This document shows positions 2,147-52,821 of a stretch of DNA of 64,000 nucleotides, in pieces. A model generated the notes under the pieces. The model ran no database searches. It was not told the DNA's origin and saw nothing but the letters and a program-made list of their open reading frames with translations. A program made the position numbers and the translations under genes. How positions within the stretch are numbered: the stretch's first letter is position 1; the number at the start of each line of letters is the position of its first letter. The stretch comes from an uncultured bacterium. GTDB lineage: Bacteria > Desulfobacterota_D > UBA1144 > Nemesobacterales > UBA2774. The stretch spans positions 1,481,410 through 1,545,409 of the forward strand of contig CAWGRW010000009.1 in the NCBI GenBank assembly GCA_963825135.1. The letters are read 5' to 3'.

Positions 2147-2950
2147 TTATTTGAACTCTTTCCTCTCGAAGATGATGATTGCGAGTATCAGAAGGGCGAG
2201 CGTATATAGGACCGCATAGACCGTGGTGTATAAGACCAGGTCGGGGTTAACGATGCCGCCGTAAACGGCTTCGCTCCTCACGTCGAATTTCTCCAGATTG
2301 GGAATTATTCTGTACACCGCTTCTGAAAATATTGCGGTTACCGGGCTCTTGACTTCCTCGGCGAACAGTCTGATATCGCTCGAGAAGCGGCCTATCGCGA
2401 TGGCGAAAAAGGTGAAAAGGGCGCTCATAACCGGGGTCGTGAAGCTCGAGAAGACGAGCGCTATGCCGATTACGACGAGGAATTCGAGGTATTCGAAATA
2501 TATCGCGTTAAAGAACTCCGCGTAGTAATGCCCCCCGTAATAAAAGTTTATCAGCCCCTCGTACCTGATTTCTATGAACAGCACCAGCAGGAATAGAATA
2601 AGCGCCATTCCGAGCGTGATTACGAATAGAGTAAGCCCAAGGCCCAGATACTTCCCGAATATGAATTCGTATCTCTTTATAGGCTTCGAGAAGATGTTGT
2701 AGACAGTCTTTCTCTCCACCTCTTTATATACGAGTCCGATACCCAGAAATACGGAGATAAGGATTCCGATTATGGATATCGCGGTGAGTCCCAGGTCCTT
2801 GACTATCTTGTTGTGCTGTTCCGCCGATATGCTGGCGAAGACGAGCGAGCTCATGATCATTATTATTGCGAATAAGATAAGGCTGTAGAGGACCCTGTCC
2901 CTGATTGCCTCAATGAACGTATTGTGCGCGACGCTCAGTATTCTTCTCAT
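2147..2950 (-). CDS. ABC-2 family transporter permease
   Basis: 267 aa, about 6 predicted TM helices. It lies immediately downstream of the ABC ATPase gene. Typical ABC-2 (NatB/YadH-like) topology. Confidence 0.65.
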   Translation of the reverse strand: MRRILSVAHNTFIEAIRDRVLYSLILFAIIMIMSSLVFASISAEQHNKIVKDLGLTAISIIGILISVFLGIGLVYKEVERKTVYNIFSKPIKRYEFIFGKYLGLGLTLFVITLGMALILFLLVLFIEIRYEGLINFYYGGHYYAEFFNAIYFEYLEFLVVIGIALVFSSFTTPVMSALFTFFAIAIGRFSSDIRLFAEEVKSPVTAIFSEAVYRIIPNLEKFDVRSEAVYGGIVNPDLVLYTTVYAVLYTLALLILAIIIFERKEFK

Positions 2951-2983
2951 CTTGTCCTGTATGCCTGACGGGGGTCGAAGTCT

Positions 2984-3928
2984 TTACTGTTCCTTTTGTG
3001 AATTCTCTTTGCGGGCTTCCTCCACAAAGAGTCCTTCGAGGGACTTCCTCAGCGGATGAATGGAGACAATCTCCGCCGAAGTGCGTGTAACGGCGTCGAG
3101 GACCCTCCGTTTAATGTCTTCGTCGAACTTGAGCACTATGTACCCTGCCCTGCTGTCCATCTCTACCCTCAGGTCTTTTACGCACTGCCTTATCTCATCT
3201 CCCGGCCCTTCCAGGTGCATTTCATAGTCGGTGTGAATCTCTTTGAGAAGATCCCCGATCTTGCCTGTTTTTATTACGGCGCCTCCCATTATTATCCCTA
3301 CCCTATCGCAGAGTGCTTCGACGTCCGAAAGCATGTGGGAGCTAAGGAGTATAGTCTTTCCGCTCCGTTTTTCTTCCAGTATCAGGTCTTTTATCTCTCT
3401 CCTGCCTATGGGGTCGAGTCCGCTCATGGGCTCGTCGAGAATGATGAATTCCGGGTCGTTTATGAGGGCCTGTGCGATGCCGATCCTCTGCATCATGCCC
3501 TTTGAGTATTTCCTCATCTGCACCTTTTTTGCGTGCTCCATCCTTACTTTCAGCAGCAGCTCGTCTACCTTTTCGCGGAGGTGTTTCCGTTTCAGGCCGT
3601 GAAGCTCGCCCATGTAAAAGAGCAGCTCCTCGCCCGTGAGGTAGTCGTAGAAGTAAGGGTTTTCCGGAAGGTAGCCGATCCTGCTCTTGACCTCGGAGCT
3701 CGAATGCTCTTTGCCCATGAGCTCTATCTTCCCTTCGGTCGGAGTGACGAACCCCAGGATTGATTTGAACGTCGTGGTCTTTCCGGCGCCGTTAGGCCCG
3801 ACGAAACCGAACACCTCTCCTTTATGAACGTCGAAGGATACGTCTTTCAGGACGCGTGTCTTCTTCCCCGAAAACCCGGTTTTATAGTCCTTGACCAGGT
3901 TCGTGATTTTGAGAATTGTTTCTGGCAT
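2984..3928 (-). CDS. ABC transporter ATP-binding protein (ABC-2 / NatA-like)
   Basis: Walker A GPNGAGKTT, ABC signature YSKGMMQRIGIAQAL, Walker B IILDEP, H-loop SSHML. Confidence 0.9.
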   Translation of the reverse strand: MPETILKITNLVKDYKTGFSGKKTRVLKDVSFDVHKGEVFGFVGPNGAGKTTTFKSILGFVTPTEGKIELMGKEHSSSEVKSRIGYLPENPYFYDYLTGEELLFYMGELHGLKRKHLREKVDELLLKVRMEHAKKVQMRKYSKGMMQRIGIAQALINDPEFIILDEPMSGLDPIGRREIKDLILEEKRSGKTILLSSHMLSDVEALCDRVGIIMGGAVIKTGKIGDLLKEIHTDYEMHLEGPGDEIRQCVKDLRVEMDSRAGYIVLKFDEDIKRRVLDAVTRTSAEIVSIHPLRKSLEGLFVEEARKENSQKEQ

Positions 3929-4014: not shown

Positions 4015-4614
4015 TTATCCGTCACAGGCGGGGTCACCGCTTCCGGATTCGAACGTGCCGTTTGCTCCCGAGGCCTGCGTTGTCACTGTACACTTGATGA
4101 CCTTGTCGGTGAATGCGGAGAAATCTTTCCTGCCGTTAACCCTCGCACTTGTCATAGAAGCCTCCCATCCGAAGTCTCCTTTGAGGGACTGAGCATCGGT
4201 GCCGGCGTCGTCGCTCCATGACAGACAGTATCCTGCTTTGGGATCGTTACAATCGGCGGAGCTCGAGGGGGTGCCGTCGTTAGTAACCGCGTCTTCGAAT
4301 GTAGAATCTAATAGTGCGTCTGCGGGATCGCTTGTTCCGCCCGGGTCTCTGAGTGTTCCCGCGGTGCCGAGAGATCCTATGAGGTTTGTAAAGTTCCTGT
4401 CACCGTTATCGTCCAGGTCCTGTTCGAAATACTCATATTCGGAGTCTTTTAGTGTCTGCAGGGCCTTCCGCGCGTTAGCTTCATTTGAAGAGATACGGGC
4501 TTTTAACAGGTTAGGTATAGCGATTGCGAGCAGGATACCGATGATAGCCGCCACTACGAGAAGCTCGATGAGGGTAAAGCCGTTTTCAATATTTCTATTT
4601 CTCTTCCTGATCAT
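4015..4614 (-). CDS. pilA: Type IVa pilin (PilA-like), paralog 1
   Basis: Class III signal peptide / prepilin motif KRNRNIENG|FTLIELLVVAAIIGILLAIAIPNL (Gly-1, Phe+1, Glu+5). About 170-aa variable C-terminal domain ending in Cys-containing …ACDG, like Myxococcus-type PilA. Confidence 0.85.
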   Translation of the reverse strand: MIRKRNRNIENGFTLIELLVVAAIIGILLAIAIPNLLKARISSNEANARKALQTLKDSEYEYFEQDLDDNGDRNFTNLIGSLGTAGTLRDPGGTSDPADALLDSTFEDAVTNDGTPSSSADCNDPKAGYCLSWSDDAGTDAQSLKGDFGWEASMTSARVNGRKDFSAFTDKVIKCTVTTQASGANGTFESGSGDPACDG

Positions 4615-4640
4615 ATTATCGCCCTTTATAGGTAATTATT

Positions 4641-4656
4641 AGCAATATACATACCA
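4641..4656 (-). promoter_or_regulatory. Putative sigma-54 (-24/-12) promoter for pilin paralog 1
   Basis: Minus-strand sequence TGGTAT-gtata-TTGCT (GG-N10-GC core) about 27 nt upstream of the start codon. Weaker match than the paralog-2 promoter. Confidence 0.3.
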
Positions 4657-4980
4657 CAACCGGCGCTAATATATCTGGTTTACATGCTTTCGTAACAGGC
4701 CCTCATTGTTATATAAATGGATACTCGAAATCGTATCGAGGGTAAGAATATTCATATGATACATTTCTTCAGAAAACGACTTGACAATATTTGTCATAGT
4801 GATGCGATTTCTGTTATCCGGGTGGGTCGAAGAAGAAATTGAAAGATAACATTCTTCCGAAAAACACAGCGGTGAGCTATTGTCAAGTTGTCAATTTTAT
4901 CATGAATACCAAGGGAATAATGGATCAATCGAATAGAACTATGGTCGTCGATTGGAGTAACGGTATACTGTTTCGGGAAT

Positions 4981-5022
4981 AAAAAAACGGCGGGTTTATT
5001 ATAAACCCGCCGTTTTGAGTTT
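4981..5022. terminator. Bidirectional rho-independent terminator between the two pilin genes
   Basis: A7-CGGCGGG-tttattataaa-CCCGCCG-TTTTGAGTTTTT. GC stem flanked by an A-run and a T-run, immediately 3' of pilin paralog 2 (minus strand). Confidence 0.6.
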
Positions 5023-5050
5023 TTCTTTCTGTTGATTATCTATCAGAGTG

Positions 5051-5656
5051 TTAATCGCAGCCGGGTGCAGTACGATGGGCCTCGAATGTCCCGACAGCTC
5101 CGGTAGCTTGTGTACTTAATGTGCATCTTATAACGCCGTCTCCGTATACGGAGAAGTCCCTTCTGCCGGTCTTGTTAAAGCTCGACATACTGTTCTGCCA
5201 GCCGAAGTCGTCAAAACCGCCTGAAGCATTTGCGGTGAATGCCGCGCCGGTCGAATCATTAAAATCACTTTGTATGCAATAACCCGCCTTCGGGTCAGCA
5301 CAGAGTGCGCCTCCTGTACTTAATGCGCCCTCGAAGCTGTCGTCAACAAGAGCGTCCTCTTCTACACTTGTACCCCCGGGATCACGCAAAGACTGAGCAG
5401 TTCCTAGTGCACCAATTTGATCGGTAAAATCTCTTCCACCCTGATCGTCCAGGTCCTGCTCGAAATACTCGCCTTCGGCATCCCTGAGCGTCTGCATGGA
5501 CTTTCTGGCGCTGGCTTCGTTCGCCGACATTCTCGCCTTTATAAGGTTGGGTATCGCGATCGCGAGCAGTATGCCGATGATTGCCGCTACCACTAGAAGT
5601 TCGATAAGCGTGAAACCCTTCTCTCCCTTTTTAACTCTGTTTAACTTGCTTAACAT
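5051..5656 (-). CDS. pilA: Type IVa pilin (PilA-like), paralog 2
   Basis: KGEKG|FTLIELLVVAAIIGILLAIAIPNL prepilin motif. The 25 aa after the cleavage site are identical to paralog 1; the C-terminal domain is divergent and ends …PGCD. RBS GGAGG 8 nt upstream. Confidence 0.85.
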   Translation of the reverse strand: MLSKLNRVKKGEKGFTLIELLVVAAIIGILLAIAIPNLIKARMSANEASARKSMQTLRDAEGEYFEQDLDDQGGRDFTDQIGALGTAQSLRDPGGTSVEEDALVDDSFEGALSTGGALCADPKAGYCIQSDFNDSTGAAFTANASGGFDDFGWQNSMSSFNKTGRRDFSVYGDGVIRCTLSTQATGAVGTFEAHRTAPGCD

Positions 5657-9031: not shown

Positions 9032-9433
9032 CTGAAGATATGCGTCTTCGTTGCGGCGCTGTCCGCGCTTTCATTCCCATTTGATTCTCCCGGCCGGGCG
9101 GAGCAGACGCCCGCCCCGAAAGAGAGCCCGGTACTCGAGGTTCAAATAAAGGACGTAGTCTCTAATCCGGGGGAATTCAACGGTAAAAAGGTTTCCCTGG
9201 AAGGCAAGGTCGCGAAGGTGGACTACAGGAAATCGAGCAAAGGGGAGCCCTTCACCGTATTCAGATTGAAGGATTCCGAGAACAACGAGGTTGGAGTTTA
9301 TTTCGAGGATGAGCGCCTGCCGATCTCAAAGGGCGATAGAGTAAAGATCGTGGGCAGGTTCTGGAAGGAGAAGAGTTATTTCCTCTATAAGATAAAGAAC
9401 GTGATTAAAGCCAGGACCGTCGATATAATCTAG
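9032..9433 (+). CDS. Small OB-fold (BOF/tRNA_anti-like) protein, probably secreted. Start codon unresolved.
   Basis: The open frame from 8987 encodes a hydrophobic signal-like segment (ICVFVAALSALSFPF) then …GKKVSLEGKVAKVDYRKSSKGEPFTVFRLKD…VKIVGRFWKE. No in-frame ATG/GTG/TTG precedes the GTG at 9218, which is where the track ORF starts. An out-of-frame ATG sits at 9039. Confidence 0.35.
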   Translation: MKICVFVAALSALSFPFDSPGRAEQTPAPKESPVLEVQIKDVVSNPGEFNGKKVSLEGKVAKVDYRKSSKGEPFTVFRLKDSENNEVGVYFEDERLPISKGDRVKIVGRFWKEKSYFLYKIKNVIKARTVDII

Positions 9434-9540
9434 ATTCAGCCGTAAATGAGAATCCCGCTTCATGCGGGTTGTTCTACAATGACACCTGTCCGGTCAAATT
9501 CCGCTTTTAAATAGATGATTCGTCATATAATATCTTTTGC

Positions 9541-12500
9541 ATGACCCTCCTCAGGAACGGGTTAGCTAGAGTTCTTTTAATAATATCTCTCGTTGTTTGC
9601 ACTGTCCTCATTTTTCTCAACATATTCCTGGGCGGAAAAATAAGCCGGCTGGCGCCGGAATACCTCGACCGATTCTCAAGGCAGAGCGGTTTTACTCTCC
9701 GGGTTAATAAGGCGGGCCTCGATCCCCTTTTCAGGATCAGACTCGACGGGTTAAACGCCGCCGATCCGGCCGCCCCCGATAAACCGCTGGCCGAGATCGA
9801 AACCCTGACTATCGATCCGCGCATATTTTCCTCCCTCCTTTCCCGGAGCGTGAAAATCGGGGAAATAATAATAGACCGTCCCGTAGTAAGGTATGACGGC
9901 AAGAGCGCCGGCAGGATCATCGCCATGATAAGAGAGGGGGAGGGCGGCGGTAAAGGGTCACAGGTGGAGATCGGGAGAATAAGATTGAATGACGCCCGCG
10001 TCGAAGTCGGCCCCGGCTCCGCCTTTACTTCCGGGGCAATGGATATTCGAATCGCCGGGGAAAGGTCACGGAACGGATCGAGTATCGGGATCGTCGGCGA
10101 CGTTACAGTCTTCGGAAAGGGGATGAGCGTCGAGGGCTCCTTAGATTTAAAGCCAGGCGAAACGAGCGGGAAATTCAATATCGAGACGGATAAATTTCAG
10201 ATCGGCTCACTTCCGGGACCCTCTGAGGGGGCGGGGAATTTGAAAGGGGTACTCGAGCTCTCGTTCAGTGCGGCTGAAAACGTCCGGTCGCGGGGTGAAT
10301 TGACTGTTCGCTCGGACGATGAGGGGAGCGGGACCGGGCGCGCCGCGCTCGGGACGCTCAAGTACGGGCTTACGTATGACAAGGCGGAGGCCGCGGCTCA
10401 TGTGAGCGCTTTGAATTTCGACATGATGAACGTCTTGCATGGAAGTCTGAGCGGTGATGTAAAGAGTGTTACGGAAAACCCCGAATTCGATTTACACGGC
10501 TCCGCCCAGTCGAGCGATCTGAAGCTGCTGTCGAAGCTGGTTCCCGAGATAAAGGCTGATACAATCACCGGAAATTTACGGTCGGACAATTTAAGGGTGA
10601 GCGGTTCTATCGGGAAAAACAGCGTCGAGCTTACGGGAGGAGTTGCGCTCGACGGTATCGGCTTCGCCTACTCGGACGATAGTCTCAGTATTGCGGGATT
10701 AAACTGCGCTCTCGACGTTAAACAGGATATCGGCGGTGGATACGGTCTATCGTTCATATCACGGGGGCCGTGCTCCGTAGAAAAATTATCTCAGAAGGAT
10801 CTGGGCGAGGTAAACGGCATTTCGGCGGGAGTAGAGATTAAAGGGAGCGACCTCTGGAAGAGTAAGGAGCTCTTGTTCTCGGATCTGAACGGCATCTATA
10901 TGGACGGAGTTGTATCCGGCTCGTTCGGCCTGTCCGTAATTAACGGACGAAGCAAAATCGATGGGAGCCTCACGGGAGCGAACCTGAATCTGAAGAAGGT
11001 GCCCAAATCTTTAGTTCCTTTCGACCTGGAGGGCAGCGCCCGGTCCCTGTCCGCCGATATAGAAGGGAATCAGGGAGCCTACGAGGCGGGGGTCAGCTTC
11101 GCCGTAAGTGATTTGATAGTCAGGTCTAATACAGGAAGGGAGTTTAAGGTGTCGAAAGCCGGGTCTTCGGGTCCGCTCGATCTCGAGTACGTGGAGAAGG
11201 CGGCCGACGAGGGTAAAGAGGCCGAAAGGAAAATCAAAATAAACGGCAAAGGGCTCTCGTACGAGAGCCTCTCGTTCGGCGAATATTTTATCGAAGGGGG
11301 CAAGGTCGACGACCTCTCTTTCTCTCTCGATCCCGGCGGCGGCTGGGCCCTCAGTATGGCGTCACAGGGGAAGGGTTTTCAGGTGTCCGGCAGGGAAATA
11401 GGCCTCGAGCAGTTTAAAGAACATATAGAGATAGAAGACAGCGGAAGGAGAGGGTTCAGCGGCACGATCACCGGCACCGGAGGCAGATTCAAGAGTGTGA
11501 CGTTTCCGGAGCTGTCGGCCGAATACGTTTTCGGGGGGGACTTTCTCGATATACGGAAGCTGAGCACTAAAGTGAGCACGATAGGGGAGCTCAGGACAGA
11601 TGATTTGAGAGTCGAGTTCGGCGCCGGGAAGGGGGGCTACCCCTATACTATTAAACTCAATGACGGGGTATTCTCCGGATATGAGGATAAATTGAGGTCC
11701 GAAGGCATATCCGGAACCTTTGTCGTCAACGATCCGGAAACGAGTAAAACCGAATGGGAGGGAGCCGCGTCGGCGTTGAAAACCGATATATTCTCACAGG
11801 TCGTCGAGGGTCTTCATTTGACGGCTTCGCCTTCCCCCGACGGTATTCTTTTAAAAGACATCACCGGCAAGCTCCTGAACGGGGAGGTTAAAGGGAGGGC
11901 CGATATCGTTACCTCCGGTACCCCCGCCCGCATAATAACCGACATCGGTCTGAAAAATGCGTCCGTAAAGTCGGGCGATCTCGATATTGCGCTCGGTAGC
12001 GCGGATTTTGCTTTCTCGGGAACCGTTCCCGACGATTCCCTCCCGGAGGGTACGGGCAAACTGGAGTTCGATCGGCTGAATTTAAAGAAGCCGGTAATGG
12101 ACCTTGTTGACAGCGGTTCGGTAAACATTCGGACTTCGGGTGAAACATTATTCATCGAAGACGGGTTTATAAGAGATAAGGACAAGAGCGAGTTGAGATT
12201 CCTGGGAGAAATGGGAAATTCCCTTAGCGCGGACAGGAGGCTTGAGGTCGTTTTCCCCGACTTCGCCCTTGCAAGCGCAGTTAAATTCCTGTCGCCCCTG
12301 ATGCCGGTGACGATCAAGGAGGGACAGGTCTCGGGTACCGCGAGTTTTAATGTCGTGTTCAACAGGGTATTCGATGCGGGGAGCTCCTGGAGCGGCGGCC
12401 TCTCGTTCAAAGGCGCATCGTTTGCCGCTTATATAGGGGGAGCCGATCTTTCCTTGAGGGGAATAAACGGGTCCATAACAGTAAAAGACGAAGGGGAGGG

Positions 12501-13242
12501 CGGAAACGCCCTGGCGTCACTCGTCGGCAATGCGCTCACTCTCGATAAAGAGGTCTATAAGGAGTACCTGCGCTCGTTCAAGGAGCCGGCCCCGGATACT
12601 GGGGCCGATCATATTAAAATCGACGGGATTGAATACGGGATATTGAAATTCGAGAACGTCGAATGCTCGCTCGAAGCCGACAGGGGCAAGATCGGGATAA
12701 TAAAGCTCGCCGCCGGTTTCTTCGGCGGGAATCTCTACGCAAACGGGGTCCTTAACCTGGGCGGAGCCGAGAGTGTTTATAATTTCTCATTCCTCTTTAA
12801 CGATATCAGCCTCGACGCTATTTCGAAGCGGCTGTCGCCGTCCGAGGAATATATAACGGGGAGGTTAAACGGTCTCGTCTGGCTCACGGGGGAGGGAGGG
12901 GACCTGAACACCATAGACGGCCCCTTCGAGTTCTGGTCAATCAGCTCCGCGAAAGAACCCAGGTCCATCGGCAAGGCTCTTCTCGATAAGCTCGGAGCGA
13001 AAGAGAGACTCATCCTGGGCTCCTCGCGCAGCTATGATAACGGTGAGATTTCAGGTTATATTAATGACGGCGTAATAACGTTCAAAAAGTTTAATATTTC
13101 TAATTCGATTCTTGGAATTAGGAACCTGTCGATTCAGGCGGACCCGGTGAAGAATTCGATCTCCATCGCGCACCTTGCGTCCGTGATAAGGGAAATCGCG
13201 AGAAGGTCGCAGTCGGGCGGTCCGACGATAGAAACTCAATAA
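9541..13242 (+). CDS. AsmA-family large envelope protein (YdbH-like)
   Basis: 1233 aa; single N-terminal TM helix (VLLIISLVVCTVLIFLNIFLG) followed by a long repetitive beta-rich region, as in AsmA/TamB/YdbH proteins. Immediately followed by a DUF1318-like lipoprotein gene, as in ydbH-ynbE-ydbL. Confidence 0.65.
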   Translation: MTLLRNGLARVLLIISLVVCTVLIFLNIFLGGKISRLAPEYLDRFSRQSGFTLRVNKAGLDPLFRIRLDGLNAADPAAPDKPLAEIETLTIDPRIFSSLLSRSVKIGEIIIDRPVVRYDGKSAGRIIAMIREGEGGGKGSQVEIGRIRLNDARVEVGPGSAFTSGAMDIRIAGERSRNGSSIGIVGDVTVFGKGMSVEGSLDLKPGETSGKFNIETDKFQIGSLPGPSEGAGNLKGVLELSFSAAENVRSRGELTVRSDDEGSGTGRAALGTLKYGLTYDKAEAAAHVSALNFDMMNVLHGSLSGDVKSVTENPEFDLHGSAQSSDLKLLSKLVPEIKADTITGNLRSDNLRVSGSIGKNSVELTGGVALDGIGFAYSDDSLSIAGLNCALDVKQDIGGGYGLSFISRGPCSVEKLSQKDLGEVNGISAGVEIKGSDLWKSKELLFSDLNGIYMDGVVSGSFGLSVINGRSKIDGSLTGANLNLKKVPKSLVPFDLEGSARSLSADIEGNQGAYEAGVSFAVSDLIVRSNTGREFKVSKAGSSGPLDLEYVEKAADEGKEAERKIKINGKGLSYESLSFGEYFIEGGKVDDLSFSLDPGGGWALSMASQGKGFQVSGREIGLEQFKEHIEIEDSGRRGFSGTITGTGGRFKSVTFPELSAEYVFGGDFLDIRKLSTKVSTIGELRTDDLRVEFGAGKGGYPYTIKLNDGVFSGYEDKLRSEGISGTFVVNDPETSKTEWEGAASALKTDIFSQVVEGLHLTASPSPDGILLKDITGKLLNGEVKGRADIVTSGTPARIITDIGLKNASVKSGDLDIALGSADFAFSGTVPDDSLPEGTGKLEFDRLNLKKPVMDLVDSGSVNIRTSGETLFIEDGFIRDKDKSELRFLGEMGNSLSADRRLEVVFPDFALASAVKFLSPLMPVTIKEGQVSGTASFNVVFNRVFDAGSSWSGGLSFKGASFAAYIGGADLSLRGINGSITVKDEGEGGNALASLVGNALTLDKEVYKEYLRSFKEPAPDTGADHIKIDGIEYGILKFENVECSLEADRGKIGIIKLAAGFFGGNLYANGVLNLGGAESVYNFSFLFNDISLDAISKRLSPSEEYITGRLNGLVWLTGEGGDLNTIDGPFEFWSISSAKEPRSIGKALLDKLGAKERLILGSSRSYDNGEISGYINDGVITFKKFNISNSILGIRNLSIQADPVKNSISIAHLASVIREIARRSQSGGPTIETQ

Positions 13243-13255
13243 ACGAGGTGAAATA

Positions 13256-13933
13256 ATGGATAGGCGTATATCGAGGGTCCTGCAGTCTTCTCTTTTCATT
13301 CTAACGCTCTATTCCTTGTCCTGCGCGACTATTACCGTCAACGTGTATTTTCCGGCGGAAGAGGTCAGGGAGGCTTATTCGAACCTGGAGGACGAGTTCC
13401 TCGATCAGGGCTCAAAGGGTAACGCCGGTTCCGAGAAAAAACAGCCGGTCGAAAACAAACCCGCGCCCTCGCCCTCACCGTCCCCTCAGAGTATGAGAAA
13501 GTATCAGGACAAGCCGGCTCTCTCGTCGGAGAGGAAATATCTCGTAATCAAAAAAGAGATATCACTCGATTTCAGCGACTATGCCTGGGCTCAGGGCAAT
13601 ATAGCCCAACAAATCACCCAGAAGATACGCAGCATGCCGGATGTTATCCAGGCTTATAAGCGGAGGTCCCAGCGCCTGGGCGAAATAAATCAGATGCTCT
13701 CTCAGGGTCTCGTCGTGGAAGGCAACCAGGGGCTGCTCATTCAGAAAGGCAGTCTAGCCCCGGGGCAGACACAGGCCCTCAACGCGGAGAACGCCGACCG
13801 TCAGGTGATTATCAGGGGGATGGCGAAGGCGATAGTGGAGATTAATAACATAGACCCCACGCCTGAAAATATAGATAAGGTGCTCCCTGAGGCAGCAAGG
13901 CAGTTCGCGAGCGTGAGGCAGAGCGAGAGGTAG
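13256..13933 (+). CDS. Lipoprotein with a C-terminal DUF1318 (YdbL-like) domain
   Basis: Lipobox LYSLS|C, a Pro/Ser-rich linker (PAPSPSPSPQ), and a C-terminal …QGLVVEGNQGLLIQKG…NAENADRQVIIRGMAKAIVEIN… resembling the YdbL/DUF1318 motif (GxVGE…GYL…N..R..IY..IA). Confidence 0.5.
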   Translation: MDRRISRVLQSSLFILTLYSLSCATITVNVYFPAEEVREAYSNLEDEFLDQGSKGNAGSEKKQPVENKPAPSPSPSPQSMRKYQDKPALSSERKYLVIKKEISLDFSDYAWAQGNIAQQITQKIRSMPDVIQAYKRRSQRLGEINQMLSQGLVVEGNQGLLIQKGSLAPGQTQALNAENADRQVIIRGMAKAIVEINNIDPTPENIDKVLPEAARQFASVRQSER

Positions 13934-14163
13934 GGGGCTGCGGCGCTTCATGCCGATAGCCTGAGATTGAGTTCCGGCTTACGGAGGGGGCTTCCCGCAT
14001 CGGCCTTCCCGTGAGGGATTGCCCCCAAGGGGATGGGCTTGGAGTCCCTGCCGGACCGCCCGTCGTCGAATATTTCACATCTTGAAGTTGTTCCGTATTT
14101 GTTGTCTAATAAGAAGCGTAAGGTTGCCCATTCCGTATAGAATCATCACCTGGAGGATGAGAT

Positions 14164-15417
14164 ATGCGCCCGAGAATAGTTCTCCTGGCCGTCATAGCAG
14201 TGTTAACCGCCTTTGCTCCTCTTACGTCGGACGCAAAGAAGTTGTTTGTCGCCAATATAAAAGTCGATGACGAGGTGGAATTCGAGGGCACGGACAGTCT
14301 TTTCAAGGTCGTCGATTTTTTTGACAACAAATCGCTCAAGGAATTCTTCCCGGATTACACGTCGAATTCCGCCGTATTGGCGAGGGTCGATCTGAGGGGG
14401 ATCGATCTCGAAGTAGAGTATCATCAGAATTCGTCGGTCCTTATCGTCAGGATACCTTCAAAAAATTTCGAAGTCAGATTCGAGGGGGCAAACCGCAACC
14501 AGAGCCAGGAGCAGTTCGAGGACTGGCTCAAAGGCGATTTCGAATCCCTTACGGCTCCGAGCGGGAAGCTTACGACGCTCCTCCACATAGTTGTGGCGAA
14601 CTCCCCTGTCGAGCCCGTCGCGGGGAACCCGAACAGTCTTCTGACCAGGATGTTCCTGTCCGATTTCAACGCGGGCATAACAGGGCCCTTTATCAGCTCC
14701 GGAAAACGCGTGGAGGGGAATCAGAACTTCCTCACGCTCGGCGGAGAGTTCGGATTCTTCAACGCGGGCCCTTACGACGGCCAGGTGCTGAATTTCCCGA
14801 TAAATTACAAGTGGAATTTCAAAGGGTGGCCGAAGCTCTCGTGGATATTCGACCTCCCCGTAACGCTTACGAGGGACGAGACGGGGTGGGCTTACATGGC
14901 TTCCTTCGGCACGGGCTTCCAGTTCAGGCCTTACAAATGGTGGAGCATCACCCCGATGGGTCGTATAGGCGGGGTCGGTTCTTTCGACGTGGGGGCGCTG
15001 GCGGTTCTGGTTTCGGGGAGTCTTACGAATTATTTCCAGGGCAGTATCGGCTCCACGAACCTCGGCTTCGGGACGATGACGGGCATATCGACTACGATAG
15101 ACGGGATCAAGGTGGGGGGTTACGACCTCAGCTACGAGCTTACGAATTACGTGCTCCGTAACGGCGGCAACCTGACTCAGAAGCTCAATTTTAATTTCCT
15201 CGGGAACCCCGCGGCGTTCAAGCTCTTCCTTAACCACACGAAATTCTGGGGCAACGAGCTCTACCTGAATTCCTTTTTCGATATGGGGCTCGCATTCGTA
15301 ACGATAAAGAAGGTCGCGGATTCCTTCGTGGAGGCGCTCGACCTTTCGTTCACGTTCTCCGCGGGCGTCGATAACGACTACAACAATTACAGCATTCAAT
15401 TGACTTACCGTTTCTGA
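14164..15417 (+). CDS. Outer-membrane beta-barrel protein (hypothetical)
   Basis: Signal peptide MRPRIVLLAVIAVLTAFAPLTSDA. Alternating-hydrophobic beta-strand pattern in the C-terminal 250 aa. Terminal …QLTYRF (aromatic-x-Phe OMP signature). Confidence 0.55.
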   Translation: MRPRIVLLAVIAVLTAFAPLTSDAKKLFVANIKVDDEVEFEGTDSLFKVVDFFDNKSLKEFFPDYTSNSAVLARVDLRGIDLEVEYHQNSSVLIVRIPSKNFEVRFEGANRNQSQEQFEDWLKGDFESLTAPSGKLTTLLHIVVANSPVEPVAGNPNSLLTRMFLSDFNAGITGPFISSGKRVEGNQNFLTLGGEFGFFNAGPYDGQVLNFPINYKWNFKGWPKLSWIFDLPVTLTRDETGWAYMASFGTGFQFRPYKWWSITPMGRIGGVGSFDVGALAVLVSGSLTNYFQGSIGSTNLGFGTMTGISTTIDGIKVGGYDLSYELTNYVLRNGGNLTQKLNFNFLGNPAAFKLFLNHTKFWGNELYLNSFFDMGLAFVTIKKVADSFVEALDLSFTFSAGVDNDYNNYSIQLTYRF

Positions 15418-16271: not shown

Positions 16272-16874
16272 TTAGTTCGGAATAGTCAGGTTGCTTATAA
16301 ATTTAACGCCTATGACAACGGCGCCCATCCTGATCCACCACCCCAGAAACACTATCGGGATGAAGAGCGCCGCCGGGTAACGCATCATCCCGCATGCGGC
16401 GTACATCGGGTGGACAGGTATCGGCGACATGGCGCCCCCGAATAACAGCAGGCTCACGATCTTGAGCGAACGGCCCTTCGTCCACCTGTGGTTTTGAACC
16501 TCCGGAAATTTTCTCCTCACGAACGGCGTATCCCCGAAGTACCTGCCGAGAAAGTACGATACTGACGAGCCCGTAACAGCCCCGAGCGCTATTAATGTTA
16601 TCAACCTCCCGGGCTCGTACCCCAAAATTGTCCCCAGCACCGCGTAGGCCGTAACGGGAAACGTGATGGGGGAGCTGCTGACGGCGGTAATCAAGTACAG
16701 CATGATGTCCGTGTTTCTTTGACCGTAGCTCGTGAGGAGACCCTCGCCAAAATCGAGCAGCCTTTCGCCGTAGAATAGCGAGACCGCGGAGCTTGCCAGC
16801 ACCATTCCGAATGTGACCAGCAGGGCCAGCTTTATCGAGTTAGGGACCGCCCGGAGCCTGACAGGGATCATCAC
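16272..16874 (-). CDS. DedA / VTT-domain (TVP38/TMEM64) family membrane protein
   Basis: 200 aa polytopic membrane protein with a YFLGRYFG motif, typical of DedA-family proteins. Confidence 0.65.
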   Translation of the reverse strand: MMIPVRLRAVPNSIKLALLVTFGMVLASSAVSLFYGERLLDFGEGLLTSYGQRNTDIMLYLITAVSSSPITFPVTAYAVLGTILGYEPGRLITLIALGAVTGSSVSYFLGRYFGDTPFVRRKFPEVQNHRWTKGRSLKIVSLLLFGGAMSPIPVHPMYAACGMMRYPAALFIPIVFLGWWIRMGAVVIGVKFISNLTIPN

Positions 16875-45858: not shown

Positions 45859-47454
45859 TCAGACCCTGTCCCTGCCCAGCACGCCTATGTTTTCGTAGTT
45901 GATACCGCCGTAGGAAGGGACGTGAGCCGCTATGTCGAGCATTATTTCCGAAGGAGCCTCGTATTGGAAGCCGGCCGGCTCTATGGCGCCGCCTATGAGC
46001 GAGAGTATTTCCCAATCCGGCCTCGCAGTCCCCGGAGGCGGTATCGCCCGCCCGGCCCTCTGTACCCTTCCCCTGTCGTTTGTGAACGTGCCCTCCCTTT
46101 CGTAGGGGCTTGCGCCCGGGAGTATTACGTGAGCCAGTTTTACGGTTTCCGTGAGCCTGTAATCCTGCACTACCAGGAGCGATAGTCCGGCGAGCGCTTC
46201 CTTAAGTCTCGGGTGCCGCTCGGCCGCCGTAATCTTAAAGAGATCGTCCCCGGCGACATATAGCGCCCCGACGCCGCCGTCTAATATCGATTGTATAAGT
46301 TCTTCTATCCTTTCCGGGCCGGCGGCTATTCCCAGGTCCTTTACCCCCGCGCTGTTGGGATGCGGGTCCCCGCTTATCAGGCCGTGGAGCTTTTGAGCGC
46401 CCGGGTCGCCCGTGTTCGAGTACACCCTCTCCGTATTAAGCGCCGAGGCGATTTTCTTCAGCAGGTAAAGCTCCTCGTTCGTTAGCGTGGGCGATCCTAA
46501 AAGAGCGATTGAACTGGGCAACGTTTCCCGCGCCTTCATGAGGCCCGACGACGCGGCGTCCACGGCGTCCTTCCAGTCCGATATTTGAAACCCCTCGCCT
46601 TTTCTCACGATCGGGTCTTTCAGGCGCACTGTACCCTCCTGAATGTCCCTGAAACCGTACCTTCCCCTGTCGCATATCCAATATTCGTTCACGTCCATAT
46701 TCGTTCGCGGCCTTACCCTCGACACCTCTCCCTTACGCGGGTCGACGCCGACTGTAATATTGCATCCGTTACTGCAGAGCGTGCAGACGCTGTCCGTGAA
46801 TTTCCAGTACCAGACCCTCTCCTCGTGAAGGGTGTCCTTGTTGAGGAGCGCCCCTACGGGGCAGAGGTCCGTAACATTTCCCGAGAGCTCGTTGTCGAGG
46901 TTCTGACCCGGGAAGACGACGATCTTTTTCCTGAAACCCCTGCCGTCGAATCCAAGCTCCCCGGTTTTCGTGATTTCGTCTGTAAACCTGACGCACCTGG
47001 TGCACATGATGCACCGGTTCGGGTCATAGAGTATCCTGTCGCTGAGGTAGTATTTCCGTCTGACCTTTTTCTCTTCCGGCCCTTCGAACCTGCTGTGTCC
47101 CGGCCCGTGCTTGACCGTAGTGAGCTGGAGCGGGCATTCCCCGCCCTTATCGCATATGGGGCAGTCGAGGGGGTGATTGATGAGAGTGAATTCTACTGTC
47201 GCCCTTCTGGCTTTTATCGCCTTATCGGTATTGGTTTTGACTATCAGGCCCTCTCTGACAAAAGTATTGCAGGCGGGCATGACCTTCGGGACCCCCTCCA
47301 CCTCGACGAGACATTGCCGGCACTGAGCCACGACGCTCAAGGCCGGGTGGTAGCAAAAATGCGGGACTTCGATGCCGACCCGTGAAGCCGCCTGTATCAG
47401 GTTGAGGCCGTCTTCGACTTCTATTTCGATTCCGTCTATCGTGAGTTTAGGCAT
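45859..47454 (-). CDS. nuoG: NADH dehydrogenase 75-kDa subunit NuoG-like (short form)
   Basis: N-terminal 2Fe-2S ferredoxin fold (MPKLTIDGIEIEV…CYHPALSVVAQCRQCLVEV), HPLDCPICDKGGECPLQ, and 4Fe-4S motifs (CIMCTRCVRF, CTLCSNGCN). Start set at MPKLTIDG, internal to the track ORF. Confidence 0.8.
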   Translation of the reverse strand: MPKLTIDGIEIEVEDGLNLIQAASRVGIEVPHFCYHPALSVVAQCRQCLVEVEGVPKVMPACNTFVREGLIVKTNTDKAIKARRATVEFTLINHPLDCPICDKGGECPLQLTTVKHGPGHSRFEGPEEKKVRRKYYLSDRILYDPNRCIMCTRCVRFTDEITKTGELGFDGRGFRKKIVVFPGQNLDNELSGNVTDLCPVGALLNKDTLHEERVWYWKFTDSVCTLCSNGCNITVGVDPRKGEVSRVRPRTNMDVNEYWICDRGRYGFRDIQEGTVRLKDPIVRKGEGFQISDWKDAVDAASSGLMKARETLPSSIALLGSPTLTNEELYLLKKIASALNTERVYSNTGDPGAQKLHGLISGDPHPNSAGVKDLGIAAGPERIEELIQSILDGGVGALYVAGDDLFKITAAERHPRLKEALAGLSLLVVQDYRLTETVKLAHVILPGASPYEREGTFTNDRGRVQRAGRAIPPPGTARPDWEILSLIGGAIEPAGFQYEAPSEIMLDIAAHVPSYGGINYENIGVLGRDRV

Positions 47455-47684
47455 AGGAAATTCGGTTAAGCGAGAGTCGGGAAAAATATTATCTGACGGG
47501 AGGTGCCTTAGCAAGTTATGCGTGGAATATGGAAGATTTACAGCCGTATAAGCCTATCTGCGGAGTGAGAGCGATTTGCCTCCCGATGAAGGAAAACGAT
47601 TCCATCCGATGTCGCAAGAGCGCGCGTCCCCGTCATTTGTATCGAGAGGGCGGGGGGCATGTGTTATAATTCACAGGATAGGCT

Positions 47685-50600
47685 ATGCGTTCGAAAGTCC
47701 TAAAACCTATATTTATATTTCTTCTGTTGCTGCTTTTATTGTCCGCTGTAATCGTTCTAATAATTCAGACCCATTACTTCAGGCAGTTCGTCAAGATCAC
47801 GACCAACGCCATCGTCAGCACCCTTACGGCCCAGGATTTCACAATCGGGAGCATTGAAGGCAATTTTCTTAAAGGCATGACCCTCAGGAACGTTTCTTTC
47901 CAAATAGGGAAAGAGAAGTTCGTCGATTGCGACGAGATTTACATAGATTACTCCCTCCCCCTTATACTCGACGGCTCGATGCTCTTCAGCAAGGTGATCC
48001 CGCTTCACGAAGTCAGGATGACGGGTATCCGGATAAATCTTGTCCATTACAAGGACGATACATGGAATTTTCAGGAGTTTCAGAAGTTAATGATGAAAGA
48101 AAAAAGGCCTAACCCCGACTGGAACATCTTTATCCAGAACGGTTCTATCGTGGACGCGGAAATGACGATCGAGGACGAGGCCAGGGGGGAGAACTCGATC
48201 TTCGAGCTGTCGAATGCGGATTTATCCTTGAACATGTTCAAGATAGCCGACAAAGCGGAGCTTGATCTTCGTGACGCTCATCTGACGGTCGCCTACGAAA
48301 GCATGAATTATGAAAAACTGTATTTTGAAAACATAAAGGGCAAGGCCGTATATTCGAACAAGGAGCTGCCCGATAAGTTCGATGTCGAGAGCCTCGTTTT
48401 CAATTATCTGGGCGCGGCGGTTTCGGGAAAGGGGACCATAATCAATATGATGGACCCGAAGTTTAGCCTGAAGGGGGTCATAAACGGTATCGACATCCCC
48501 GACGTCGGGACCCTCAACCTCGATATTGAGGCGCAGGGTAGTTCCTTTCAATGGAGGGATTTGCACGCTACGGGGAAGATGAGGCTCAGGGACTCTTCGG
48601 CGCTGCAGAGCGGTCTCACGGGCGGGGTCGAGTCGGTCGCCGTGGAGAACACGCACGTAGCATTAAATAAAGGCAGCCTGAGCGCAAGCTTCGGGGACGC
48701 GTCGTTTGACGGAACCATCGATCTTCTGGAGATGAGCGACAGGGCAAAGTATAACCTGGCGGACATACGGCTCGACCTCCGGTCTCTCAAGGTCCCACGG
48801 GTCCTGGAGCTTGTGGAGAAAAGAAACGGTCCTCTCGGCGAGGGTATCAACAAAAATATAGACGCGGTTATCAATTCGAAGCTGAAAGTTACAGCCGGAT
48901 GGAGCAGGTCCCGCGAGTTTACAGCCGGGCTGGATATAGGCGAAATGAGCTTAACCGGCGGAGGGGTCGGGGAGATCAAGCTAAAAGGCCCTGTATCGCT
49001 CGCGGGCTCGAAAATAGATTACGATCTGGACGCGGGCTTCCTCAAGACGAATTTCGCTCCCTTGCTTAATGATGAAAAGTACAGGAGCGATTTTAATTCG
49101 GATCTCAAGATTAAAGGGTCTTTGAGCACCGCCGAGGTCTTTCCCAAGGGCTTTGAGGTTGCGTTGCGCGGCGAGGCGGGGGCTTCAAAGATATTCGACC
49201 TGAATCTAAAAAGAGCAGTCGTGGATACGAGTTATAACGGAACATCGATCGATATCAGATCCCTTGTCCTGGAGTCCGAGCCCTTTAGCATGAATGCATC
49301 CGGCCGGCTCGGCAGCACCGGCGGAGAAGGCGTCAAGTACGAGATAAACGTAAAGAACCTCAATTTCCTCTCGAAACTCGCGCCCGCTCATCATGTCGGG
49401 GGGAGCCTCGGCCTCAGCGGCCGCATCGAGGGGAGTTTTCAGAACCCTAACATCATCGTTGACGTCACAGGCTCGGATATTACGTATGAGGAAATGCGGT
49501 TGAGGATGAAGAAGATCGAATTGAGCGCGCGCAGCTTTCTCGATATCAACGACCTGAAATTCAAAGCGGCCGCGGAAGTGAAGGGGATAGACGTGCAGGG
49601 CAGGGAAATCCAGACGGTCAATTTCAAGGCCGGGAGCAGAGGCGGCGAAATAGACGGGACGTTCGACGTACAGGAAACCGCGAAAAGGAAATATTCCTTT
49701 GATTTTAATATCAGGGATCTCGGCAAAGAGGAAACGAAGCTTGAGCTGGATAATGTCGTCATGAATTTCAGAAATGCCGTTTTTAAAAACCGTAAGCCCG
49801 TTCTTATTTCATTGTTCAAGGATAGAGTGAAGGTGAGTTCCTTCAACCTGTATCATAAAGATAACTTTATGGTCGGGGATCTCGTTCTCGGTTTCGACGA
49901 GAGCGTGGACGGATCGGTCAGGCTCGAAAAATTAAGCCTCCTCGACGCATCCGAGCTGTTGGGCATAGAATTCCCGGTAAAGGGCCAGATGACGGGAGAA
50001 ATAAAATTAGGTTCTTCGCTCAAGCATCCGGACTTGAGGGCCGATATCATGGTGAAGAACCTCGAGTATATGAAATTCAAGAGCGACGAGCTCAAGCTCT
50101 CGTTCTTTTTCTCCGATAATAAAATGGGCCTCGATTTGAAGATATGGGGCGGAAAGGAAGAGATCCTTTCCGCGGTTTGTGACGCGAAGCTGAATTTCGA
50201 TCCCGAGAATATCGATAAAAGCATCAGAGAGGCCGAGTATAGAGCGGTAATAAAATCGAAGGGAGTCGATATAAGCCCGCTGGCCATCTTCAATGAAGAG
50301 ATTCAGGAAATAAACGGGAAGCTTCTAGTGGACATCGTCGCCGAGGGAACGGGGGTCGATCCCAACGTCACCGGCAGTCTCGAGCTCCGGGATATGACTA
50401 TGAAGATACTGGCGCTGCGTAATAAAATTCACATAGATAAGGCGATCATGGATATGACCGGGAAATACGGAAAGCTCCGCCCCGCCATAATCGATACAGG
50501 CGGGGGAGAAGGGGTCTTCGAGGGCAGCGTAGATTTCCGGGACCTCTCATACACGGGTAAGGGGAAAATGTCCGGCCTGCTCGTAAAAACATATCCGGCT

Positions 50601-51578
50601 GAAGTTACCGCGAACCTCGACGGCGATCTGGAGGTGCAGGGGAAATTCATGAACGCGTCGATTAAAGGGAGCATCACGGCGAACAATGTCAAAGTCACTG
50701 TACCCGACAAACCCCTTAAGGAGATCGAGAACATAAAATTTATCGACGAAAAAGATGCGGACAAGGAAGAGTTCATATTCACAGGAGAGAAAAAAGAGGA
50801 TTTTGTCGAGGAGTACATTGCGCTTGACCTCAGCCTCGATATTCCCAAGGAATCGCGGGTAAAGGGCGCGGGTGCGAACATCGAGGTCGAAGGGAAGCTC
50901 GACGTCGATAAGAACTATAATGAGCCTTACACCATCTCGGGGAATATTGATGTCATAAGAGGTGATTACCAGTTCATGGGCAGGCTCTTCAAGATTGAGA
51001 ACGGTACGGTGAGCTTCAGAGGGAAGGATATCGCGGATCCGTTCCTCGACCTGCGCGCGACGTATGAGGTATCGGGCGTGGAGGTCTATATTAACATCAC
51101 GGGCACTGCGGAGAAACCGAGGATTCAGCTTTCGAGCGACCCTCCGCTCGATGAAAACGAAATAGTGTCCTATCTCGTGTTCGGCACTTCGTCGGAGACG
51201 CTCGGTACGGACGAGAGGGTGCAAATTCAGGAGAAAGCGGGAGAGGTTTTGGGCACGATGGCGGTGGGCGAGCTGAGGGAAGCCCTCGGCGAAGAGCTTG
51301 CCATAGACGTGATGACCATCAAGGGCGGCCAGACCGGGTTCAGGGACACTCACCTCGAGATAGGCAAATATCTGACAGACGACCTCTACATAGGGTATGA
51401 GCGGTTGTCTTATGAAAGGTATTTCTACGAGCGTTATTTCTTCAGTCCGGGTCTTCCTTCGTCCACAGTCACGGCCAACAGGGCCGTCATCGAATACAGG
51501 GTGTTCGATTTCCTGACGCTCGAGAGCGAGATAGGCGAGCAGGCGGGAGCCGACGTCTTTTTCAATTTCGACTATTGA
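47685..51578 (+). CDS. tamB: Translocation and assembly module subunit TamB-like (AsmA family, C-terminal DUF490)
   Basis: 1297 aa; N-terminal TM helix (PIFIFLLLLLLLSAVIVLII); C-terminal DUF490 signature (…GNIDVIRGDYQFMGRLFKIENGTVSFRG…DPFLDLRATYEVSGVEVYINITGTAEKPRIQLSSDPPLDENEIVSYLVFG…). No tamA adjacent. Confidence 0.8.
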   Translation: MRSKVLKPIFIFLLLLLLLSAVIVLIIQTHYFRQFVKITTNAIVSTLTAQDFTIGSIEGNFLKGMTLRNVSFQIGKEKFVDCDEIYIDYSLPLILDGSMLFSKVIPLHEVRMTGIRINLVHYKDDTWNFQEFQKLMMKEKRPNPDWNIFIQNGSIVDAEMTIEDEARGENSIFELSNADLSLNMFKIADKAELDLRDAHLTVAYESMNYEKLYFENIKGKAVYSNKELPDKFDVESLVFNYLGAAVSGKGTIINMMDPKFSLKGVINGIDIPDVGTLNLDIEAQGSSFQWRDLHATGKMRLRDSSALQSGLTGGVESVAVENTHVALNKGSLSASFGDASFDGTIDLLEMSDRAKYNLADIRLDLRSLKVPRVLELVEKRNGPLGEGINKNIDAVINSKLKVTAGWSRSREFTAGLDIGEMSLTGGGVGEIKLKGPVSLAGSKIDYDLDAGFLKTNFAPLLNDEKYRSDFNSDLKIKGSLSTAEVFPKGFEVALRGEAGASKIFDLNLKRAVVDTSYNGTSIDIRSLVLESEPFSMNASGRLGSTGGEGVKYEINVKNLNFLSKLAPAHHVGGSLGLSGRIEGSFQNPNIIVDVTGSDITYEEMRLRMKKIELSARSFLDINDLKFKAAAEVKGIDVQGREIQTVNFKAGSRGGEIDGTFDVQETAKRKYSFDFNIRDLGKEETKLELDNVVMNFRNAVFKNRKPVLISLFKDRVKVSSFNLYHKDNFMVGDLVLGFDESVDGSVRLEKLSLLDASELLGIEFPVKGQMTGEIKLGSSLKHPDLRADIMVKNLEYMKFKSDELKLSFFFSDNKMGLDLKIWGGKEEILSAVCDAKLNFDPENIDKSIREAEYRAVIKSKGVDISPLAIFNEEIQEINGKLLVDIVAEGTGVDPNVTGSLELRDMTMKILALRNKIHIDKAIMDMTGKYGKLRPAIIDTGGGEGVFEGSVDFRDLSYTGKGKMSGLLVKTYPAEVTANLDGDLEVQGKFMNASIKGSITANNVKVTVPDKPLKEIENIKFIDEKDADKEEFIFTGEKKEDFVEEYIALDLSLDIPKESRVKGAGANIEVEGKLDVDKNYNEPYTISGNIDVIRGDYQFMGRLFKIENGTVSFRGKDIADPFLDLRATYEVSGVEVYINITGTAEKPRIQLSSDPPLDENEIVSYLVFGTSSETLGTDERVQIQEKAGEVLGTMAVGELREALGEELAIDVMTIKGGQTGFRDTHLEIGKYLTDDLYIGYERLSYERYFYERYFFSPGLPSSTVTANRAVIEYRVFDFLTLESEIGEQAGADVFFNFDY

Positions 51579-51633: not shown

Positions 51634-52821
51634 TCAGTAACTATTGAGGAACTTCCTTATCCCCCTTACGGCCTGCATGATCCTTTTCTCGTTCTCGACG
51701 AGAGCGAACCTCAGGTGTCCTTCACCATAGTTTCCGAAGCCGATGCCGGGAGATACGGCTACCTTTGCCTTTTCTATGAGCAGCTTCGAGAACTCGAGAG
51801 ACCCCATGCTCTTGAATTCGTCGGGTATCTCGGCCCAGACGAACATCGTCCCTTTGGGTTTCGGTATCTCCCATCCCGACTTTGCGAGACCGTCGACGAG
51901 CTTGTCCCTTCTCGATTTGTATAGTTTTCTGATGTCCTCGACGCACTCCTGCGGTCCGCTGAGCGCCGCGATTGCGGCGACCTGAATAGGGGTGAATATG
52001 CCGTAGTCCATGTAACTCTTTATACGCTTGAGCGCGGATACTATCCTAGCGTTCCCCACCATGAAACCCACCCTCCACCCGGGCATGTTGTAGCTTTTGG
52101 ACAGGGAGTAGAATTCGACCCCGATATCCTTTGCGCCCGGGATCTGAAGGAAGCTCGGGGCCTTGTAGCCGTCGAAACAGAGCTCGGCGTATGCGAAATC
52201 GTGCACGACGATTAGTCCCGCTTCCCTCGCGAGCTCGTAGATGTCCCTGAAGAAACCGAGGTCCACCACCGTCGACGTGGGGTTGTTAGGGAACGAGATC
52301 ATGAGCACCTTCGGTTTTGGCCAGGTCTCTTTAACCGCGTTCTCTATCCCCTGGAGAATGTTCGAGTCCCTCGTGAACGGGACGCTGTGGACGTCGCCCC
52401 TCGAAATAATAACGGAGTAGATATGAATCGGATAAGAAGGGTTGGGAACGATAACCGTGTCGCCGGGTGAGAGTATTGACAGCATGAGGTGGCATATCCC
52501 TTCTTTCGAGCCGATCGTGGTAACGACTTCCGTATCGGGGTCGAGCTCGACGTCGTAATTCTTCTTATACCATCCCGCGACCGCCCTTCTCAATTTCGGT
52601 ATGCCGGCAGAAGCGGAGTACCTGTGGGCTCTCGGGTCCTTCGATGCCTCTATTAATTTTTTTACGATATGGTCGGGAGTCGCCTGGTCCGGATTACCCA
52701 TTCCCAGGTCTATGATGTCGTCGCCCCTCGCCCTCGCTTTGGATTTAAGCTCGTTGACGATCGTGAATACATAGGGCGGAAGCCGCCTTATTAATGAGAA
52801 TTCTTCTGGTTTATATTGCAT
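51634..52821 (-). CDS. Class I/II pyridoxal-phosphate aminotransferase (AlaT/AspC-like; possible LL-DAP aminotransferase)
   Basis: …[14 protein letters not shown]…, …[15 protein letters not shown]…, …VPNPSYPIH…, PLP-lysine region …[16 protein letters not shown]…. The DapL role is only suggested by dapF/dapB in the window. Confidence 0.8.

Follow-up and report, generated by a model that had tools for sequence, protein, structure and literature searches.

The route by which phospholipids reach the outer membrane and the way in which AsmA-like bridges are fastened are still being worked out, almost entirely in Escherichia coli and Pseudomonas. The closest described relative of the locus presented here is the YdbH-YnbE-YdbL system of E. 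coli. According to published work, YdbH lacks the length needed to cross the periplasm by itself (PMC11126948, PMC12447247); strand I30-I38 of YnbE augments YdbH, and the YnbE helix K45-T56 binds YdbL (PMC13464000). The ratio of YdbL to the lipoprotein must be balanced (PMC11126948, PMC13464000), and the YdbL:YnbE ratio is critical in that a surplus of YdbL kills cells whose sole bridge is YdbH-YnbE (PMC13464000). Here we describe a locus of Dadabacteria on contig CAWGRW010000009.1 (positions 1,481,410 to 1,545,409 of the forward strand); this whole stretch of 64,000 nucleotides is referred to as the window, and its features are given in window coordinates. A gene for a 1233-residue AsmA-clan protein, hereafter the giant protein, is followed on the same strand by a gene for a lipoprotein that carries a predicted YdbL-fold domain. 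We read the locus as a fused form of the YdbH-YnbE-YdbL system already described, and the AsmA-like/lipoprotein pair is a conserved two-gene envelope module across several phyla. In the literature searched, neither fused forms nor DUF1318 partners for other AsmA-like subfamilies were encountered, and the detailed work on YdbH-YnbE-YdbL concerns E. coli and Pseudomonas.

The open reading frame (ORF) positions, spacing and sequence features listed in a preliminary description of the window were all recovered from the sequence. The lipoprotein signal peptide ends in ...LYSLS-C23, the Pro/Ser linker noted in that description is present as KPAPSPSPSPQS, and the C-terminal half is helical. With only a 13-bp spacer, containing GAGG, between the two genes, their co-transcription and translational coupling are likely. 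No lipoprotein-like small ORF, that is, no separate ynbE, lies in either spacer of the window. The module is laid out as follows:

9541..13242, plus strand: AsmA-clan giant protein, 1233 amino acids (aa), with a predicted inner-membrane anchor and a predicted body of repeating beta-groove
9568..9630, plus strand: predicted N-terminal transmembrane anchor of the giant protein, approximately residues 10-30, a hydrophobic helix (RVLLIISLVVCTVLIFLNIFL)
12613..13239, plus strand: residues 1025-1233 of the giant protein, its best-conserved C-terminal part, where invariant columns are densest in alignments A2 and A6
13243..13255, plus strand: spacer of 13 bp between the giant gene and the lipoprotein gene, with a GAGG Shine-Dalgarno sequence
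13256..13933, plus strand: lipoprotein, 225 aa, with signal peptide, N-terminal module, linker and predicted YdbL-fold domain
13322..13420, plus strand: N-terminal module of the lipoprotein, with lipid-Cys23, ATITVNVYFP and a predicted acidic helix (residues 34-55)
13421..13582, plus strand: predicted disordered linker of the lipoprotein, rich in Pro, Ser and Lys (predicted local distance difference test, pLDDT, 50-65)
13583..13591, plus strand: A-x-A motif A110-W-A112 at the border between linker and folded domain, nearly invariant
13592..13930, plus strand: predicted YdbL/DUF1318-fold domain lacking the C-terminal beta-hairpin

The suggestion that the lipoprotein ends in a DUF1318/YdbL-like domain stood up, through transitive profile searches, residue conservation and fold. 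Scored directly against Pfam DUF1318 (PF07027), the lipoprotein reached 15.4 bits, below the cut-off of 27, in an alignment limited to profile positions 5-56 of 92, and weak matches were obtained for 10 of 22 close homologues (best E = 0.0029). A profile built from 22 Dadabacteria lipoprotein homologues (A1) was searched against 1.84 billion representatives and found 128 proteins, both two-domain and single-domain, with E-values from 1e-58 to 1e-4. When nine of these were scanned, eight of them two-domain (202-231 aa) and one a classical stand-alone protein (125 aa), the Pfam DUF1318 cut-off was passed by eight, at 42.2-72.3 bits. One lipoprotein homologue is already automatically annotated as a 'DUF1318 domain-containing protein'; a PDB profile search by sequence with the lipoprotein returned no match. 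The AlphaFold 2 model, calculated from a 56-sequence alignment, has a pLDDT of ~97 over residues 115-224 and a whole-chain predicted template modelling score of 0.69, and fold comparison identified a YdbL fold in the C-terminal domain. In the alignment, YdbL residues E35, N58, E60, R61, L68, K70 and N72, which are reported to be essential or to shift on binding of the YnbE helix (PMC13464000), correspond to E155, N179, D181, R182, M189, K191 and N197 of the lipoprotein, and the N and R columns (N179, R182) are invariant in 68 of 68 sequences. By profile and predicted fold, the C-terminal domain is thus YdbL/DUF1318-like with conserved binding residues, albeit with a sub-threshold direct Pfam score and without the terminal hairpin considered below. 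A separate observation from the search of representatives concerns a metagenomic protein of 339 aa (P0261), in which apparent AsmA-like C-terminal strands run straight into a complete DUF1318 domain, which might reflect a natural deletion/fusion or an assembly artefact.

The N-terminal part of the lipoprotein is conserved in its own right. After the lipid-Cys, all 22 Dadabacteria homologues carry CATITVNVYFPAEEVR(E/D)AYSxLExEFL; across phyla the motif reads C-A-x-ITVNVYFP, followed by an acidic amphipathic helix, and at least 90% of family members keep the lipid-Cys itself. The helix is predicted at residues 34-55 with a pLDDT of ~93 and about five net negative charges. The linker differs in length and sequence among homologues, measuring ~55 residues here, and ends at an A-x-A motif that is found, after a short semi-hydrophobic stretch, in 125 of 134 family members. 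In sequence the motif looks like a vestigial or active signal-peptidase-I-type site, which would fit either a fusion origin or processing. A 1568-aa repeat adhesin (P0262) in which the N-terminal module was matched 13 times was discarded as a chance hit, made through 'TVTITVNP' repeats that resemble the short strand motif.

The AsmA-like fold proposed for the large protein is borne out by both profile and model. Pfam AsmA (PF05170) matches residues 1025-1125 of the giant protein at 36.0 bits (cut-off 29.8, E = 4.9e-9) and is matched by 13 of its 16 homologues. A single N-terminal hydrophobic helix occupies residues ~10-30, and the N-terminus is matched by the starts of the DUF748, YhdP and GspN profiles: DUF748 aligns with residues 8-257 at 25.9 bits (cut-off 50), Pfam YhdP gives weak matches below its cut-off, and Leptospira-type GspN reaches 19.7 bits (cut-off 50) over the shared N-terminus only. 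An AlphaFold 2 model of residues 34-1233 from a 17-sequence alignment has a mean pLDDT of 76.9 and 62% strand, arranged as ~66 successive strands averaging ~12 residues, and the alternation of hydrophobicity within these predicted strands exceeds that of shuffled strands (z = 3.2). Foldseek at E <= 0.001 returned only ApoB100 (1.6e-6) and the LPD-3/BLTP1 complex (9e-6), which are lipid-binding beta-sheet proteins; a PDB profile search by sequence gave only chance BPI matches. By these profiles and the model, the giant protein is a beta-rich member of the AsmA clan with a predicted inner-membrane anchor.

Its description as YdbH-like, on the other hand, is not supported by sequence. The Pfam YdbH profile (PF11739) has no match in the giant protein at E < 0.1; it gives weak matches in 9 of 16 homologues, one of them above the cut-off (P0125, 33.3 versus 26.3), and matches none of seven partner proteins from other phyla. 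A hidden Markov model (HMM) of the cross-phylum family (A6) scored the E. coli paralogues at 49.1 bits for AsmA, 31.3 for TamB, 28.8 for YhdP and -1.1 for YdbH. Profile comparison of the C-terminal region with a small YdbH alignment gave a weak match (P = 3.8e-4, probability 36%). By these scores the giant protein is not specifically YdbH-like, and YdbH is the least similar of the E. coli paralogues.

Loci were scanned for the ITVNVYFP motif with an 8-sequence alignment, using one genome per species, and 80 of 163 confirmed loci were retrieved. They belong to Dadabacteria, Nitrospirota, Methylomirabilis, Geobacteraceae/Desulfuromonadales, Syntrophaceae and UBP4. Linkage was counted with local HMMs over the 63 loci that have enough upstream sequence. 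In 58 of the 63 an AsmA-like ORF of 1047-1282 aa lies directly upstream of the lipoprotein gene on the same strand, and the distance from its end to the lipoprotein gene ranges from -46 to +391 bp in these 58 loci; outside the window, too, the gaps between the paired genes are short, and a separate ynbE would hardly fit. The seven partners from other phyla are of the Pfam types AsmA and/or DUF748, with DUF748 passed at 59.8-79.4 bits, and none is YdbH-like. The proposed parallel with the ydbH-ynbE-ydbL operon survives in part: a conserved pair of AsmA-like and YdbL-domain genes exists, but a separate ynbE is missing from the spacers of the window and the giant protein is not of the YdbH type by sequence. 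In Geobacteraceae a paralogue of the lipoprotein also occurs, preceded on the same strand by a different lipoprotein of ~245 aa in L038 and L069, as well as in L058 and L059, where less upstream sequence is available. The N-terminus of this ~245-aa protein reads ...LSGCT-YK-Q, and this arrangement lies at 7202-8645 in L038, 7121-8597 in L069, 2001-3477 in L058 and 425-1914 in L059.

Considering this conserved pairing, we hypothesize, with moderate confidence, that the locus encodes a two-gene bridge module in which an AsmA-clan groove protein works together with an outer-membrane lipoprotein acting as an analogue of both YnbE and YdbL. Lipid transport in the groove, strand augmentation and helix binding in cis are inferred here from the parallel with YdbH-YnbE-YdbL. 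With a length like that of YhdP, the giant protein would start at the inner membrane and cover all or most of the periplasmic width with its groove, and the cargo in the groove would be lipid, most likely glycerophospholipid. The lipoprotein would reside in the outer membrane, and its N-terminal motif, placed two residues from the lipid anchor, may augment the last strands of the groove in the manner of YnbE; the giant protein's C-terminal residues 1025-1233 would then be the docking end, and docking would fasten the distal end of the groove to the outer membrane at its inner leaflet. Given a giant protein of YhdP's length, a multimeric stack of the YnbE type may be unnecessary. The retention of the basic and polar YnbE-helix-binding residues implies a helix ligand for the YdbL-fold domain, and the only conserved acidic helix of the two-gene module is in the lipoprotein chain itself. 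The tethered domain may accordingly bind the adjacent helix, in cis or between neighbouring copies, which would prevent self-association of the sticky strand until docking and would hold the stoichiometry at 1:1. A bolder version, which we regard as possible but doubtful, takes the fused lipoprotein as a natural single-chain YnbE plus YdbL whose strand caps the groove of a long AsmA/DUF748 bridge and whose acidic helix is held in cis by the tethered domain. The connector would then be a widespread and possibly ancestral partner of AsmA-like bridges in several non-proteobacterial phyla, fission or fusion would link it to the separate ynbE and ydbL genes of proteobacteria, and the A-x-A motif would be either the fossil cleavage site of a YdbL signal peptide or a genuine processing site at which the chaperone domain is set free at exactly 1:1.

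Several observations weigh against the two-gene bridge as formulated. YnbE PF13617 (Lipoprotein_19) is matched neither by the lipoprotein nor by nine family members, with E. coli YnbE as control at 59.3 bits. When mature regions were compared with a YnbE alignment of eight sequences from chromids and plasmids using hhalign, the register was as expected, but the score of 10.0 was reached by 54 of 300 column-permuted comparisons (8.5 +/- 2.1, p ~0.18); with signal peptides included, P = 5e-4 was obtained, driven by the signal peptide and lipobox. The N-terminal module thus appears YnbE-analogous in architecture and not YnbE-homologous, homology being undetectable at the sequence level, and the earlier idea that a YnbE-like part had been merged into the ORF is unproven. 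Residues 23-33, which include the ITVNVYFP segment, are coil rather than strand in the monomer model; in published YnbE models the strand is likewise lost without YdbH (PMC13464000). The terminal hairpin GWWxQ...GxWxxK (W104, K107) is absent from the lipoprotein and all its close Dadabacteria homologues, and is retained by relatives of <=49% identity; in E. coli a contact of this hairpin with YdbH is predicted, and YdbL is not fully functional without it (PMC13464000). To these are added the non-YdbH sequence type of the giant protein, the 5 of 63 loci, all from Geobacteraceae, in which the lipoprotein paralogue has no AsmA-like ORF detected upstream, and the length of the giant protein, which may let it extend to the outer membrane without help, as is assumed for YhdP.

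The last point leads to an alternative that we consider unlikely, in which the giant protein would suffice by itself as a bridge of the YhdP kind and the lipoprotein would be a YdbL-type regulator or chaperone tethered at the outer membrane, its conserved N-terminal motif serving anchoring, sorting or some other contact and not groove augmentation. The YhdP-like dimensions of the giant protein (1233 aa, ~66 strands) agree with this, as do the undetected YnbE homology and the coil conformation of the motif in the monomer model, and long AsmA-like constructs function without YnbE in P. aeruginosa (PMC12447247). However, an invariant motif placed right after the lipid-Cys and followed by an acidic helix exceeds the needs of an anchor, and the YdbL-fold domain keeps the YnbE-helix-binding residues with the only conserved acidic helix in the same chain. 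The nature of the cargo may also be questioned. Roles in the assembly of outer-membrane proteins or lipoproteins have reportedly been proposed for AsmA, TamB and the AsmA-like GspN, and the pair could handle such substrates rather than bulk phospholipid. E. coli AsmA and TamB are the best-scoring paralogues with the family HMM, a weak Leptospira-type GspN match occurs at the N-terminus, and two pilin-like genes lie at 4015-5656; but the GspN match is confined to the shared N-terminus and stands at 19.7 against 50 bits, no secretion machinery is adjacent, and outside Dadabacteria only the AsmA-like/lipoprotein pair was seen to persist. The sole characterised system with a YdbL-fold partner is, moreover, the YdbH-YnbE phospholipid bridge (PMC11126948), and we consider a different cargo quite improbable. 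A role of the GspN type in a type II secretion system was also given low weight.

Downstream of the module lies one further gene that had been put forward as the outer-membrane partner:

14164..15417, plus strand: putative secreted or outer-membrane protein, 417 aa, judged to be outside the module

A module of three genes, in which this protein would serve the bridge as a beta-barrel partner in the outer membrane, much as TamA serves TamB, is a very improbable reading. It draws on position and sequence, since the 417-aa ORF lies on the same strand 230 bp after the lipoprotein gene, has a signal peptide and ends in ...TYRF, and the integral outer-membrane partner of YdbH-type bridges is an open question (PMC12447247). 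It also draws on adjacency in eight close Dadabacteria loci, where the gene stands between the lipoprotein gene and the next gene (L006-L008, L012, L013, L015, L016 and L039). The Dadabacteria neighbourhood, however, is collinear as a whole, running through a tetratricopeptide repeat gene, orf124, BirA (minus strand), a small ORF, the giant gene and the lipoprotein gene to a K+ channel, VTT/DedA (minus strand), isocitrate dehydrogenase and M19 peptidase (minus strand). Since the entire region, BirA and isocitrate dehydrogenase included, is syntenic, adjacency there carries little weight. The 417-aa gene is absent from the collinear loci L009-L011, L014 and L017-L029; the lipoproteins of L009, L010, L011 and L014 are 72-84% identical, yet these loci are without it. 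It is found in none of the non-Dadabacteria loci. In L005 it lies 6 kb away behind opposite-strand genes, in a complete 2.67-Mb Dadabacteria genome it is located elsewhere, and more distant homologues occur in unrelated contexts, as seen for P0151, P0176 and P0194 and at identities of 36% and 26%. Neither the protein nor ten of its homologues has a Pfam, NCBIfam or PDB-sequence match, and no Omp85 or POTRA domain was detected. Co-conservation with the pair therefore fails: the ORF is an insertion or deletion within Dadabacteria, its membership of the module is not supported, and the adjacent putative outer-membrane protein is removed as a candidate for the missing integral partner. As to the protein family itself, it comprises at least 60 clusters and has a strongly conserved SPVxPVAGNPNSL motif, and in L004 and L005 the 417-aa gene is followed by a gene for a pentameric ligand-gated channel.

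The remaining neighbours are reported for completeness. In eukaryotes, VTT proteins partner bridge-like lipid-transfer proteins, and a VTT/DedA-domain gene is located at 16272-16874 (minus strand), 2.3 kb downstream of the module; as a module member it was rejected, its position reflecting only the general Dadabacteria synteny and the gene being absent from L012-L016 and from all other phyla. Upstream of the giant gene, a small ORF of 71 aa (9218-9433, plus strand) is followed by a GC-rich terminator-like hairpin at 9454-9468; the ORF is present in all Dadabacteria loci and was not found beside the pair outside this group. Two genes with a prepilin N-terminal methylation motif, pilin- or pseudopilin-like, lie at 4015-4614 and 5051-5656 (both minus strand) and adjoin an ABC transporter pair (2147-3928, minus strand); no secretion or pilus machinery was seen nearby. 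The second AsmA-family gene of the window, at 47685-51578, is indeed TamB, as previously noted (Pfam TamB, 207.7 bits). It encodes 1297 aa on the plus strand, has no adjacent TamA/Omp85 gene, and is flanked by a NuoG-like NADH dehydrogenase subunit (45859-47514, minus strand) and an aminotransferase (51634-52821, minus strand).

The value of the locus lies in what the fusion implies for known bridges. By joining the two partners, it fixes the YdbL:lipoprotein ratio, and the natural tethering of a predicted YdbL-fold domain to a lipoprotein, kept beside long AsmA-like proteins in several deep-branching phyla, is an independent evolutionary argument that lipoprotein and YdbL are direct partners in a fixed ratio. 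It further suggests that this type of connector is not confined to short YdbH proteins, and it may provide a simpler two-component system for structural work.

[quoted passage not shown] YhdP (1266 aa, E. coli and P. aeruginosa) resembles the giant protein in a length sufficient to span the periplasm, an N-terminal transmembrane anchor and a continuous beta-groove, the last two being predicted here. YhdP has no known lipoprotein or YdbL partner and uses C-terminal hydrophobic helices (PMC12447247), whereas the giant protein is paired with a lipoprotein. Stand-alone DUF1318/YdbL proteins (PF07027) have the same fold, as predicted here, and the same core motifs, G-E...G and E-N-x-D-R. The classical forms, ~110-130 aa long, are exported by a type I signal peptide, stay soluble in the periplasm and carry the C-terminal GWWxQ...GxWxxK hairpin, whereas the window lipoprotein is lipid-anchored, has an additional N-terminal module and linker, and is without the hairpin. 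The system of E. coli, YdbH-YnbE-YdbL, differs in having three genes where two are found here, with the lipoprotein and YdbL-fold domain of the window joined in one chain by the ~55-residue linker. YdbH has 879 aa against 1233 for the giant protein, the W104/K107 hairpin of YdbL is missing here, and the strand-type motif begins 2 residues after the lipid-Cys, compared with ~13 in YnbE. Both systems combine an AsmA-clan groove protein with subsequent outer-membrane lipoprotein and YdbL-fold functions (PMC11126948, PMC13464000), both keep the YdbL fold and the YnbE-helix-binding residues, and the lipoprotein of the window, like YnbE, presents a lipid anchor, a short strand-type motif and an acidic helix in the same order.

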